A stretch of 64,000 bases of DNA, taken from an uncultured virus (IMG/VR IMGVR_UViG_3300028115_001312) (taxonomy: Duplodnaviria; Heunggongvirae; Uroviricota; Caudoviricetes). Positions 13,566 through 62,626 of the stretch are shown piece by piece. The notes beneath the pieces are model-generated. The model searched no databases. It saw only the letters and a program-made list of their open reading frames with translations, and was not told the DNA's origin. Position 1 is the first letter of the stretch. Each line of letters opens with the position of its first letter. The stretch lies in IMG/VR virus record IMGVR_UViG_3300028115_001312, positions 1 to 64,000 of that record; one strand, 5' to 3'. Both the position numbers and the translations under genes were made by a program.

Positions 13566-13642
13566 TGGTGCACCAGGAAGGATTCGAACCTCCGACCCTC
13601 GGTTTCGTAGACCGATGCTCTATCCAGCTGAGCTACTGGTGC
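13566..13642 (-). tRNA. tRNA-Arg (ACG)
   Basis: GCACCAG acceptor stem, anticodon arm TCGGT-CTACGAA-ACCGA, GTTCGAATC T loop, encoded CCA. Confidence 0.95.
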
Positions 13643-30231: not shown

Positions 30232-30320
30232 TGGCGGACAGTGTAGGATTCGAACCCACGGTACCTTTTGGGTACAACGGATTAGTAATCCGCCGCTTTA
30301 AGCCACTCAGCCAACTGTCC
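30232..30320 (-). tRNA. tRNA-Ser with anticodon ACT (unusual A34)
   Basis: GGACAGT acceptor, anticodon arm GCGGA-TTACTAA-TCCGT, long variable arm GTACC-CAAAA-GGTAC, GTTCGAATC, G73 plus CCA. Confidence 0.9.
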
Positions 30321-32030: not shown

Positions 32031-32106
<76 letters not shown>

Positions 32107-59115: not shown

Positions 59116-59349
59116 CTAATAATTTTCTATTTCACGTTGTTTTTTTAACCATCTGGCTCTACCCGCCGCTTTTGCTTTAGCACGTTTTTCGCTAGGCTTA
59201 ACATAATACTTACGTTTCCTCATTTCTAAAATAATGCCTTCATCCTGCATTAATCTTTTTAGTTTGCGAATTGCACGAGAAACATCATTGTTTCTTACTT
59301 GGACATATAGTCCTTGTTTTTCTCTAGTTGGTCTTTGTGGTCTTGCCAT
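59116..59349 (-). CDS. rpsU: Ribosomal protein bS21
   Basis: VQVRNNDVSRAIRKLKR..EG..EMRKRKYYVKPSEKR. Confidence 0.88.
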   Translation of the reverse strand: MARPQRPTREKQGLYVQVRNNDVSRAIRKLKRLMQDEGIILEMRKRKYYVKPSEKRAKAKAAGRARWLKKQREIENY

Positions 59350-59702
59350 TTAGTCATCCATTTTATTAGCGGATCTATAGGATCCTTAACTTCATTTAAA
59401 TTAAATCGTTTGTACGATTGTTTATTATTATAGTAGTAAACTTGTGATTTGTCAATAAAGAAACCTAAAAAAGTTTCATTATATGCACAGTTTAATATAC
59501 TTATGTCTGCTTGATGGTAAGCAGTAGAAATCCATTCTAAATCTTCTTGTTTGTTAGTAGTATATAAAGTAACTTCTATGGGTAATCTTCTAATGTTATC
59601 TACTATATTTTCTATATAATCATCACATCCTATGCAAAGAATACTTGGTGCTTTTGCATAGTATATATCAGGAGGAGTTACTACTGTAACATTATGGTGC
59701 AT
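59295..59702 (-). CDS. Hypothetical protein
   Basis: VVTPPD N-terminus; operon-packed. Confidence 0.65.
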   Translation of the reverse strand: MHHNVTVVTPPDIYYAKAPSILCIGCDDYIENIVDNIRRLPIEVTLYTTNKQEDLEWISTAYHQADISILNCAYNETFLGFFIDKSQVYYYNNKQSYKRFNLNEVKDPIDPLIKWMTKWQDHKDQLEKNKDYMSK

Positions 59703-60561
59703 TTAATTTTATCCATTGTTTCTTTGTAATTACATTTGCTTTGTGATCTAAAATACTATCTTTATCTTTTTTTGTAGGACACATAGTGCAAATTTTATGT
59801 GGTTTACCAAAATTTTTTATAAACATAACAATCTCATGCAAAGGACTTTCAATTGATATACCCTGGTAATCTGTATATGGTTTCCATTCTTGATTAATAG
59901 GTTGTTTCCAGTCATTAAGAACTTTATTTAATAAGGCAATACTACTGCATTTGTATATCTTACCTTCATAAAGTAAAGGGCAGGTCTGTTGAATACACAT
60001 ATCAAATGCATCCTTAGGATTATTATTGTGTGGCCACATATTTCCAAAAGTACCTTTATAGGTTTTAAAAAATTGTGTTGGACTGTTAATTTGGAATCTA
60101 GTATTATTAGGGCCTATCCAGCGATTTATACCATATTCAGTAACAGGTTTCCATTCATACTTTTTAAAAATATATTCTATTATCGACTTAGCATATGGTT
60201 TATCTTCATGTATTGTAAACTTAAACACGGTATTTCCAACATCAATACACCAATCTAAAACTTCAGGACATTTATGAAAGTTAACTCCGTTTGTTGTAAA
60301 CCTTATTTGACTATTAGGTAGTAACTGTCTTACACCATATATCCATTTCTCACAATCTGGGTTAAGAGTTGGTTCTCCTCCCATTATACCAAAATCAGAA
60401 ATATCTAACCTGTCTATCCATTTTTCTATCCAAGACTTACCGTTTTGCCAACTTATACTGCCTTTCATATTATAATCACTATAATTTGAACACCCTGCAC
60501 AACTTAAATTGCAAGCATATGTAATCATAGTTTCAACAAAAGGAAGTATAGGCTTACTCAT
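59692..60561 (-). CDS. Radical SAM protein
   Basis: CNLSCAGC, GGEP, TNG, SPASM/twitch-like C...GKIYKC...CTMC. Confidence 0.88.
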   Translation of the reverse strand: MSKPILPFVETMITYACNLSCAGCSNYSDYNMKGSISWQNGKSWIEKWIDRLDISDFGIMGGEPTLNPDCEKWIYGVRQLLPNSQIRFTTNGVNFHKCPEVLDWCIDVGNTVFKFTIHEDKPYAKSIIEYIFKKYEWKPVTEYGINRWIGPNNTRFQINSPTQFFKTYKGTFGNMWPHNNNPKDAFDMCIQQTCPLLYEGKIYKCSSIALLNKVLNDWKQPINQEWKPYTDYQGISIESPLHEIVMFIKNFGKPHKICTMCPTKKDKDSILDHKANVITKKQWIKLNAP

Positions 60562-60869
60562 AACTTAAATTTAACTTCTTCTTGTTCTTGCTCTGTAAGA
60601 TCATCTATTTCAATATGACCCTGTTTTACCAACCAAGTAAGATGTGTTATGTAATCTTCATTTAAGTAAGTATCGGTTGTTTCTTTATCTAATTGCATCC
60701 AGTTTGAACCTGTCCAGCGAAATAATTTATTAGGTAGTGCATCTACTCTTACAAACAAATCACCTTTATCAGGATACTTGGGAAAAGCAGTACCAAAGTC
60801 TGCTTGAGCCGCCTTTTCTAAATCCAGATCCGCTACAACGGCTAAATTCGGGGTAGGGATCGTTATGCT
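60558..60869 (-). CDS. -1 frame C-terminal extension of the upstream gene (likely reached by programmed frameshift)
   Basis: Frame open from the A7 run to 60558 with no ATG/GTG/TTG before 60758; encodes ..ADFGTAFPKYPDKGDLFVRVD.LPNKLFRW.G..W. Confidence 0.7.
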   Translation of the reverse strand, partial: SITIPTPNLAVVADLDLEKAAQADFGTAFPKYPDKGDLFVRVDALPNKLFRWTGSNWMQLDKETTDTYLNEDYITHLTWLVKQGHIEIDDLTEQEQEEVKFKL

Positions 60870-62626
60870 TTTTTTGGCTCTTCAGGGGTTTCGGTGTTAG
60901 CTTCTGCTTCTAAACCTTGTGCAAATTCGTCTTTTTCAACTAATTGATACTTCTCTGCCATTTTAATAACAACTGCATCACGTCTTTCTATCTCTGCTTC
61001 CTGTTCAGCTATCTTCTTTAATAGTTCTTCTTCACGAGTTTTAAGACCTTCTGCACCTTGTGCTATTTCATCCAGTGTCTTTTTGTAGTTGTCACGTTCT
61101 GCTTCTGTTGCAACTACTTTATCAACTAGTGCATCACTTTCTGCTTTTGCTTCTGCGAGTTGTGCTTCTAAACCAGCAATTTTTTCTACTAGTTCATCAC
61201 GTTCTTTTTGTAGTTCTGCAAACTTCGCAGGATCTACATTAGCAAGATTACCATCTAATAGTTTTTCTATTTCTGCTAAGACTTCATTATGTTTTTTAAG
61301 TTCCATTTCTAGTTCCTCTACTCTTGGATCAGTAACTCTTACGATTTGTTCTTTTACTTTTGGTTTATTTTTTTGGCGGTCTTCTCTCCACCATCCTATT
61401 GTCATAGTACCTGCTAGTACTAAACAAACTGCAAGTGGATCAAATACTGCAACAATAATTATAATAACCCAACGTACTGCATCTTCTAATAAGTTACGAT
61501 CTGCTTCACCATATATAAGTTCTGCAATATATTTTACAGGACCAACTTCAGCTTCAAACTGTCTATATTCTTTTTCAAATACAAACTTTTCTTCTCTTAA
61601 TTTGTCTAACTCTGGTTGTACACTTTCTATATTTTTTTCTAACTGTACAATCTTTTCATCTACACTATCATTAGTAGTACCTGCTTCTGTAGTATATTTT
61701 GCAATATTTGAATTTGCACTATCAATAGTGCCTTTTATACTGTCACGTATTTTTTGTATACGAACTTCTACTTGGTTAATTTGTTCAGCAAGTTTTTTGT
61801 TAATCTCTGTAATTTGTCTTTGTACTCTACTTGCGACACCAATCTCATTTTGTTTTGCTTTTGCAATATCAGCATTAAGTTTATCACGTTCAGGCTTTTG
61901 TTCTTTACGTAATTGATTACCTTTTGCAACATTATCTACATCAGCAGTAAACACACCACCCTTAGTTGTGCCTTGTTTTAAATATGCTTCAACATCTTTG
62001 TCCAGTACTGCTAAACGTTTTTCTGCTTGTGCTATGTCTGCCTTTGTACGATTCTGTGCATCACTTAATCGTTTGTTTTGTTGTGCAATTTCTTTATCTG
62101 CTTGTGCTTGTAGGCCAGGTATCTTCGCATTTTCTGCATCTATTTGTGGTTGTATTCTATTGTTTGCTTCTTTAATACGATCACGTTCACGTTTTATTAA
62201 TACATCTAATCTAGTGCTTGTTTCACCCTGGTTAAGTCTTTTAATATCTTCTGTCCAGCGATTGACTTTGGCTTGTATACGTGCCATCTTTTTGTCAATT
62301 ACTTCAACTTGTGCAATTTGTTCTGTACCCATTGCACTTTGTTCAATATGGGACTTAGATAGGAAACCAAATACACCCATGCTTGTGATAAACATAAGAA
62401 CAACTACTGCAATTACTAGATAACTTTTTATTACCATAGGTGCACGATGCCAGTTTTGATGTAACCATACTGTTGCTAGTAGTTTACCTACTTCTAATAC
62501 ACTACCCATTAGGACAATTGGTAAGAAAGCCGCTGCAAATATTGCAGTAAGTCCAATAATACTATAATACGCAGCAATTATACTGATTGATATAGCAACA
62601 AATAATGTGAGGATACCTAAAAACAT
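60863..62626 (-). CDS. Membrane protein with long coiled coils
   Basis: Three N-terminal TM helices (LEVGKL, ITSMGVFGFLSK), coiled coil, EVGPVKYIA, TM with FDPLA, second coiled coil. Confidence 0.8.
   Translation of the reverse strand: MFLGILTLFVAISISIIAAYYSIIGLTAIFAAAFLPIVLMGSVLEVGKLLATVWLHQNWHRAPMVIKSYLVIAVVVLMFITSMGVFGFLSKSHIEQSAMGTEQIAQVEVIDKKMARIQAKVNRWTEDIKRLNQGETSTRLDVLIKRERDRIKEANNRIQPQIDAENAKIPGLQAQADKEIAQQNKRLSDAQNRTKADIAQAEKRLAVLDKDVEAYLKQGTTKGGVFTADVDNVAKGNQLRKEQKPERDKLNADIAKAKQNEIGVASRVQRQITEINKKLAEQINQVEVRIQKIRDSIKGTIDSANSNIAKYTTEAGTTNDSVDEKIVQLEKNIESVQPELDKLREEKFVFEKEYRQFEAEVGPVKYIAELIYGEADRNLLEDAVRWVIIIIVAVFDPLAVCLVLAGTMTIGWWREDRQKNKPKVKEQIVRVTDPRVEELEMELKKHNEVLAEIEKLLDGNLANVDPAKFAELQKERDELVEKIAGLEAQLAEAKAESDALVDKVVATEAERDNYKKTLDEIAQGAEGLKTREEELLKKIAEQEAEIERRDAVVIKMAEKYQLVEKDEFAQGLEAEANTETPEEPKKA

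Follow-up and report, generated by a model that had tools for sequence, protein, structure and literature searches.

Frameshift signals in described systems and the locus under study

Pseudoknot-bearing −1 frameshift signals with good support are few in bacterial systems, and the phage cases are mostly tail chaperones. The case considered here concerns uncultured marine phages and one of their non-structural membrane proteins. It comes from positions 1 to 64,000 of the IMG/VR record IMGVR_UViG_3300028115_001312 (Caudoviricetes), a stretch of 64,000 nucleotides (nt) that we call the window. On the minus strand of the window, an open reading frame (ORF) for a protein of 587 amino acids (aa) ends just past a slippery heptamer, which is followed by a predicted RNA pseudoknot and by an open −1 frame, here termed the extension, that encodes a further domain. 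An earlier note on this DNA, made from the letters alone, had read these elements as a −1 frameshift at the heptamer, stimulated by the pseudoknot and yielding two isoforms.

Among described systems, E. coli dnaX (tau/gamma) offers a first parallel. There, too, tandem Lys tRNAs shift by −1 on A_AAA_AAG or A_AAA_AAA with an RNA structure a few nt on in the 3′ direction, one of the products ends within a few codons of the slip, and the isoforms differ by their C-terminal domains. The two cases part at the outcome, since in dnaX the shifted frame stops and the short form is the frameshift product, whereas at this locus the shifted frame adds a domain. The stimulators also differ, being a stem-loop together with an upstream Shine-Dalgarno-like element in dnaX and a pseudoknot here, and the proteins are unrelated. 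Inspection by eye of the window's slip site showed no upstream Shine-Dalgarno-like element at the right distance.

The best-known frameshift of double-stranded DNA phages is that of the tail assembly chaperone, G/GT of phage lambda (Xu, Hendrix and Duda, 2004, as cited in passages of PMC8163748 and PMC5009743). It shares with our locus a conserved −1 shift that adds a C-terminal domain, giving two products with a common N-terminal part. In contrast to the tail chaperone, the protein in the window is a predicted multi-pass membrane protein without a match to a PHROG tail family, and its gene lies near replication, ligase, Hsp20, ClpS and S21 genes instead of between those for the tail tube and the tape measure. 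Most G/GT sites are not known to have a strong pseudoknot.

The anatomy of the signal matches that of RNA viruses (IBV 1a/1b, retroviral gag-pro) and of bacterial IS3-family elements, with which it has in common a heptamer of the form X_XXY_YYZ, a spacer of 6-7 nt, and a two-stem pseudoknot whose second stem arises from the loop of the first. What sets it apart is bacterial translation, a DNA genome and another class of gene, along with a loop 1 that is long (9 nt) for a stem 2 of 7 base pairs. By this comparison, the site would work like the dnaX or IS3-type signals and would have the anatomy of the viral heptamer-plus-pseudoknot class; it is not a tail chaperone frameshift. No published report of this frameshift was found in the available parts of the literature searched, which included PMC5009743, PMC10885494, PMC8163748 and PMC6375957, supplements aside, and the earlier note's remark that the context is an undescribed one holds within that literature. 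Judged by its sequence features, this is very probably a familiar mechanism in a gene family where it had not previously been reported.

The junction in the window

The 0-frame ORF for the putative short isoform occupies 60863-62626 on the minus strand and is supported by homology over residues 1-416 to two single-ORF relatives, P0024 and P0124, described below. Its 3′ end reads GAG CCA AAA AAA GCA TAA. The heptamer A_AAA_AAA (60869-60875) is in phase with the 0 frame, its first base X being the last base of CCA, and the stop codon TAA (60863-60865) follows one sense codon past it. Following a TGA, the −1 frame is open from 60881, two codons ahead of the Lys-Lys pair, and runs for 107 codons from stop to stop. 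Read from the slip onwards (60558-60875), it comprises the two Lys codons, 103 further codons and a TGA stop at 60560-60558. The stop and the start codon of the radical SAM gene that comes next overlap, as ATGA. The predicted trans-frame product would thus have 586+103 = 689 aa, with the junction ..EEPKK|SITIPTPNL... The earliest ATG, GTG or TTG in the −1 frame is the TTG at 60758, which falls within the conserved GDLF motif, and the −1-frame tryptic peptide SITIPTPNLAVVADLDLEK is encoded upstream of every start codon. On re-reading, the earlier note's coordinates and counts for the ORF, the heptamer, the stems, the −1 frame and the 689-aa product proved correct throughout, as did its drawing of a two-stem H-type pseudoknot 7 nt past the heptamer.

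A conserved heptamer

Scans of IMG/VR and of metagenome contigs with peptide patterns from the −1 frame returned 60 loci, two of which have the junction off the contig. The remaining 58, which include the window and a few duplicate contigs, represent 44 distinct junctions of 140 nt. All 58 have an in-phase X_XXY_YYZ heptamer within the short overlap, a long upstream ORF that ends 0-3 codons past the heptamer, and the homologous domain in the −1 frame behind it; both parts share one frame in none of them. The heptamer is A_AAA_AAA in 21 of the distinct junctions, A_AAA_AAG in another 21 and C_CCA_AAG in two. With one locus from a later scan (L062, A_AAA_AAG) and a relative of it (L143, A_AAA_AAA), the total comes to 46 junctions, 22 A_AAA_AAA, 22 A_AAA_AAG and 2 C_CCA_AAG, and an in-phase heptamer of this form is present in every one. 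Passages of PMC5009743 name A_AAA_AAG as the classic site for E. coli, one highly prone to shifting.

The 0-frame stop lies exactly one codon past the heptamer in 42 of the 44 junctions. Around the heptamer the 0-frame peptide differs between junctions (EEPKKA, TEPKKD, DSEKKE, NDPK) while the slippery property persists; the heptamer is conserved as a property rather than as a sequence. Among the junctions, the frameshift arrangement was found down to about 62% identity.

The downstream pseudoknot

The putative pseudoknot begins after a spacer of 7 nt (60862-60868), a length kept in most relatives and reduced to 6 nt in L062. The 5′ arm of stem 1 (GAUCCCUAC, 60853-60861) is followed by loop 1, 9 nt that vary among relatives in the alignment (60844-60852), and then, inside the stem 1 loop, by the 5′ arm of stem 2 (AGCCGUU, 60837-60843), of which the well-supported core is 60838-60842. 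The 3′ arm of stem 1 (GUAGCGGAUC, 60827-60836) has a bulged C at 60832; loop 3 (60814-60826) has 13 nt, and the 3′ arm of stem 2 (GGCGGCU, 60807-60813) completes a duplex with a calculated energy of −9.3 kcal/mol. In total, stem 1 has nine pairs and the one bulged C, stem 2 has five Watson-Crick and two G-U pairs, and the loops are 9, 0 and 13 nt long. When the 69 nt that follow the heptamer are folded by ViennaRNA, the minimum-energy nested structure corresponds exactly to stem 1. The element forms a GC island (0.51, versus 0.34 for the window).

Support for both stems comes from covariation. The alignment held 44 junctions, 37 of them distinct, and excluded L057, which has a different downstream sequence, and L060, which runs into a contig end. 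Stem 1 is paired in 100% of the cells across the 37 distinct sequences, with double changes at three of its nine pairs: 21-55 (GC 35 / AU 2), 22-54 (GC 18 / AU 16 / GU 3) and 27-48 (UA 35 / AU 2). Three more pairs of this stem vary by G-U. Stem 2 is paired in 82% of the cells and its five central pairs are solid, with pair 42-72 occurring as CG 31 / UA 3 / AU 2 / UG 1 and pair 44-70 as UG 19 / CG 18. At columns 42 and 72, each the third position of an Ala codon, the changes are synonymous, and their joint occurrence is therefore not explicable by protein coding. Over the whole pseudoknot, 92% of the cells are paired, against 30-50% when the partners are slid, and the covariation score of 0.235 compares with 0.165 +/- 0.008 in shuffles, none of the 500 shuffles reaching 0.235. 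In L062 and L143 the peptide encoded here is a different one (VVEDSANIVAANAHFG) and the stem sequence is different, yet pairing occurs in the same columns.

The codons that make up the structure are constrained as well. Synonymous-codon entropy is 0.33 over codons 5-25, which hold the structure, versus 0.61 over codons 26-95, and among relatives the stem codons are invariant while the synonymous sites of the loop 3 codons, unlike those of the stems, are free to vary. An RNA element that lies within a coding region would be expected to leave such low synonymous entropy over its stems, and this is how we interpret it. A natural variant is found in L044 (1495-1581) and L060, where a 9-nt deletion has taken away the upper end of stem 1 along with most of loop 1; L044 retains the lower part of stem 1 (GGUUC/GGACC) and stem 2. 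A search of Rfam over 60500-61000 matched no family.

The −1 frame as coding sequence

In the 33 of 43 relatives that could be compared with the window without gaps, differences in the −1 frame fall at codon positions in the order 3 > 1 > 2 (1271/609/364). Conservation of the extension at the protein level reaches back to the heptamer itself. Taken together, these sequence patterns indicate that the −1 frame is translated as a continuation of the upstream protein and is under purifying selection. One side observation concerns L049 (1507-1740), in which the extension frame ends at 78 codons (..YLNEIMSNI), probably owing to an indel in that contig.

Fused, short and frameshifted relatives

A profile built from 38 extension sequences was searched against protein cluster representatives and matched 1038 of them at E <= 0.001 and 581 at E <= 1e-10. 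Among the 150 best representatives, 65 have both the domain and the N-terminal membrane part within one ORF, 46 of these from about residue 1. P0024 (632 aa) is 39% identical to the 587-aa protein (E 1e-78) and 45% identical to the extension (E 9e-25), and P0124 (727 aa), also a single ORF, matches both parts likewise. A word-index search had found no fused forms of greater length, a result overturned by the exhaustive profile search. The single-ORF homologues (P0024, P0124, L065, L081) have the same build as the predicted long isoform, namely an N-terminal membrane part, a coiled-coil linker and a C-terminal FG..FP..GDLF..W domain. They differ from the frameshift forms in having no frameshift, and the roughly 20 residues ahead of the domain are variable in them and nearly invariant in the frameshift forms. 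For many family members, then, a fused architecture is the normal state.

A further scan used patterns taken from the N-terminal part and the domain core, and the best 80 of 567 related loci were classified. In 59 of these only the N-terminal part is present; 12, in IMG/VR, have a single long ORF with the domain in frame; and three have a frameshift junction, L062 being new and L063 and L064 lying on contigs already seen. Three more are cut by the contig end. The domain lies far downstream in the −1 frame in two (L089, L137) and in the +1 frame in one (L067), where it is found about 560 nt past the end of the N-terminal ORF and may be a separate gene. Many family members are thus without the domain, the 59 loci and the cultured Pelagibacter phage Mosig among them. 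The closest cultured relative in the search was a Pelagibacter phage; cultured relatives match the N-terminal ~45% of the protein only, and the short form alone is found in Mosig and in several jumbo phages.

In a tree of the domain, which did not include L062, 37 of the 38 frameshift tips fall in one clade (support 0.90). A 72-aa fragment of unknown context belongs to it as well; all 60 in-frame tips lie outside it, as does L057. Because the frameshift forms make up one clade and in-frame fusions are widespread, the frameshift looks to have arisen within a family whose long forms were in frame. In essence, the three kinds of heptamer, the compensatory changes in the stems, the loop deletion, and the in-frame and short-only relatives constitute a natural variant series that approaches a ready-made mutational analysis.

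Proposed mechanism and alternatives

The explanation that best accounts for these observations, and one that we hold to be highly probable, is a programmed −1 ribosomal frameshift by which short and long membrane coiled-coil isoforms are made from one message. Most ribosomes would read CCA AAA AAA GCA and stop at TAA, releasing the 587-aa short isoform. When two Lys tRNAs sit on A_AAA_AAA, the pseudoknot 7 nt ahead would resist unwinding at the mRNA entrance, and a fraction of the ribosomes would slip back by one base, re-pair on AAA AAA and go on in the −1 frame. After the slip, about 20 codons of linker, which coincide with the pseudoknot, would be followed by the domain of about 85 residues, so that the 689-aa long isoform would be the short isoform plus an added C-terminal module. 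That the ribosome does the slipping, and not RNA polymerase, is what we infer; the fixed ratio of the two products proposed in the earlier note is likewise a supposition. The earlier note had proposed looking among homologues for a conserved heptamer, for covarying stems and for natural in-frame fusions, and confirming the run of seven A's (A7); each search gave a positive result, the run is A7, and the reading is supported on all four counts.

Several results weigh against this interpretation or limit its support. The figure of 58 out of 58 loci is in part a matter of ascertainment: the first two scans used extension peptide patterns, and because one of these is encoded by the pseudoknot the sample is biased towards pseudoknot-bearing loci. 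The pattern-independent scan yielded only one new frameshift lineage, L062. L057, the relative that diverges most, has nine A's in a row and no comparable structure. Within the pseudoknot, many sequences leave the outer pairs of stem 2 (39-75, 45-69) unpaired, and the compensatory changes amount to only about five to seven independent events, in sequences that are related. Nor is the fold unusually stable by nested-fold energy, for which z is +0.23 in the window against dinucleotide shuffles, a weak test as ViennaRNA cannot score pseudoknots; a two-round fold over 43 relatives, a weak test for the same reason, gave a mean z of −0.44, with 3 of 43 below −1.64.

The alternative that survives best, and one that we nevertheless consider improbable, is transcriptional slippage, in which RNA polymerase adds one A within the A7 run, a share of the mRNA becomes single-frame, and the ribosomes never shift. 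One extra A would give the same fusion, the window has A7, and L057 and L089 have nine A's, a run length at which transcriptional slippage is known in bacteria. It fits less well with the range of heptamers, since 22 of the 46 junctions are A_AAA_AAG, mostly with only six A's, and the two C_CCA_AAG junctions have three. A polymerase slip would be unexpected at the latter, whereas tandem tRNA re-pairing (Pro from CCA to CCC, Lys from AAG to AAA) works. The conserved, covarying structure 6-7 nt downstream would have a role only for the ribosome, and an RNA-library contig that crosses the site has A7, though contigs hide minor variants. Transcriptional slippage could still play a part at A7, and a larger one where there are nine A's, as in L057 and L089.

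A still less likely account is that of two separate genes, with translation of the domain alone, begun at the TTG at 60758 or at a non-canonical start, or resumed by reinitiation past the TAA. Gene callers list the 587-aa ORF alone, and short proteins of little beyond the domain do exist (P0011, P0027). An open shifted frame behind a long ORF is also common in the window (17 of 114 cases) and is therefore no argument for frameshifting by itself. Against two genes, no ATG, GTG or TTG lies between the opening of the frame and the conserved FG in 42 of the 44 junctions, the other two being one with a TTG and one without the FG motif. The TTG at 60758, which the earlier note had named as the rival start, is not conserved, its Leu (in GDLF) being written with five different codons among 35 relatives, and a start there would cut what is modelled as the first strand of the domain. 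The conservation of the protein up to the heptamer and the in-frame fusions in relatives likewise favour a single translated product.

The state of the A-run was examined in contigs of four public runs (two DNA and two RNA libraries), which were compared with the window over 60450-61150. No letter is inserted or deleted in them over this interval. Contigs without gaps cross the A-run in both DNA runs and in the RNA-library run X11; those of X13 end before it. As the run data are contigs, in which rare variants are lost, heterogeneity of the A-run in mRNA is possible, a further point to be held against the frameshift reading. An artefact or decay, meaning a miscalled homopolymer (true A8) or a recently broken gene, is the least credible account and already stands refuted for the frameshift clade: homopolymers are error-prone and a single added A restores one frame, but A7 without an indel is found in contigs of independent runs and studies, and the same arrangement recurs in 46 distinct junctions with three kinds of heptamer and with purifying selection on the −1 frame, recurrence in many diverged relatives being far stronger evidence against a homopolymer error than the contigs are.

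An artefact is a possible reading only for three loci represented by one contig each. In L057 (1474-1500), L089 (5112-5145) and L137, an in-phase heptamer rich in A, but no pseudoknot, precedes the domain, which is in the −1 frame. The A's number nine in a row in L057 and L089, and 250-290 nt separate the junction from the downstream domain in L089 and L137. Such junctions could be independent recoding sites, cases of transcriptional slippage or homopolymer miscalls.

The C-terminal domain

The domain added by the proposed frameshift corresponds to residues 22-105 of the extension (60561-60812, minus strand), for which structure prediction and the profile search suggest four short strands followed by two helices. 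Its motif is FG..FP..P.KGDLF.RVD.LPNKL..W.G..W. A first structure model of the extension had a pLDDT of 57, and a second, built on a deeper alignment, reached 69. Averages over 10-residue blocks from residue 21 onwards are 67-82, whereas residues 1-5 and 7-21 are below 50; the first ~21 residues, which are the part that encodes the pseudoknot, are thus modelled as disordered.

Neither Foldseek of the extension model against the PDB (best E 0.59) nor a PDB sequence profile search gave a match; the ESM Atlas returned only unnamed viral clusters, and tblastn of the extension against cultured phages matched nothing. A search of BFVD with the model returned one homologue together with weak fibre or receptor-binding rows, which we treat as a lead only. 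The extension also matches PHROG 11591, 'virion structural protein', only at profile positions 413-484 of 497 (E 7e-6). The 'structural' label is not transferable, because the match consists of the shared C-terminal module alone.

The core motif is repeated 5-18 times in proteins of more than 800 aa among the best 150 representatives. P0002-P0009 and P0012 are giant proteins of 900-2900 aa with 8-18 tandem copies of a ~40-residue core, FG..FP..GDLF.R.D....LY.W.G..W, and P0002 additionally matches DUF2793 and a prophage tail endopeptidase domain. These sequences suggest that the domain is a module common to fibre-like proteins. We would guess that the added domain is a binding or oligomerisation module related to a phage fibre hairpin repeat. 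The family occurs as short, long and dual, frameshifted forms, which we take as a hint that the C-terminal module can be added or left out and that its dose matters. The same three forms suggest that the possession of both isoforms matters, and the dual-form pattern offers an entry point to a widespread phage protein. For annotation, the correction is a practical one, as gene calls give the 587-aa protein, while some 100 codons are left without assignment or with a wrong start.

The membrane protein and its gene neighbourhood

By hydropathy, residues 1-55, 61-92 and 379-412 of the 587-aa protein form hydrophobic stretches. The long regions that separate and follow these stretches are charged and rich in Ala and Leu, and we read them as coiled coil. 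The earlier note had described an inner-membrane coiled-coil protein; the hydrophobic and Ala/Leu-rich regions are indeed seen, and the inner membrane itself is a suggestion drawn from hydropathy. Past the last hydrophobic segment is a basic stretch with 7 K/R in 23 residues, and because of it the C-terminal part, and hence the added domain, would by the positive-inside rule be cytoplasmic, as would the N-terminus. Searches of Pfam and the PHROGs gave no match for the 587-aa protein, and no tail family. Pfam DUF4407, a membrane coiled-coil family, is not matched by the window's 587-aa protein and is matched weakly by 9 of 40 full-length relatives (E down to 9.5e-6). The one score compared with the curated cut-off, that of P0092, is below it, at 16.3 bits against 31.3. 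A distant relation to DUF4407 is possible.

The gene sits among replication and host-takeover (non-structural) genes, not among tail genes. Its neighbours in the window are a radical SAM gene, bS21, Hsp20, ClpS and a GMP-reductase-like gene, and those in relatives include DNA ligase, a Clp-like ATPase, S21 and Hsp20. The radical SAM gene (59692-60561, minus strand) lies between the extension and a conserved ORF of 135 aa. Most relatives are without it, and in them the extension ends ..EEVENAIQRR.. and overlaps the start of the small ORF by about 35 nt.

Downstream of the frameshift gene is that for bS21 (59116-59349, minus strand; PF01165, E 1e-15). In a tblastn search, S21 is found ~320-420 nt past the extension in 38 of the 44 related loci with enough downstream sequence. 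One could imagine that the phage bS21, encoded one or two genes downstream in the same conserved cluster, tunes the frameshift ratio by changing the way in which ribosomes of the infected cell deal with the slip site, and that the isoform balance shifts during infection, an idea that we regard as very doubtful. The possibility, raised by tblastn, that S21 synteny is specific to the frameshift clade was considered and rejected, as a PHROG scan shows S21 beside in-frame and short relatives too, and synteny in relatives without the frameshift argues against a specific link between bS21 and frameshifting.

The record from which the window is taken has 75,429 bases, with a CheckV completeness of 22%. 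The tRNA genes of the window, all on the minus strand, are Arg(ACG) at 13566-13642, Ser(ACT) at 30232-30320 and Thr(TGT) at 32031-32106; there is no tRNA-Lys among them. Of 15 short forms of the family that were examined, 7 have their gene between DNA polymerase and UvsX/DnaB. In L071, L079, L092, L112 and L118, short forms of 265-580 aa, without the C-terminal domain, lie between the genes for DNA polymerase and UvsX/DnaB helicase in a T4-like order, and L101 and L123 share this position, with the polymerase and the recombinase present in pieces only.

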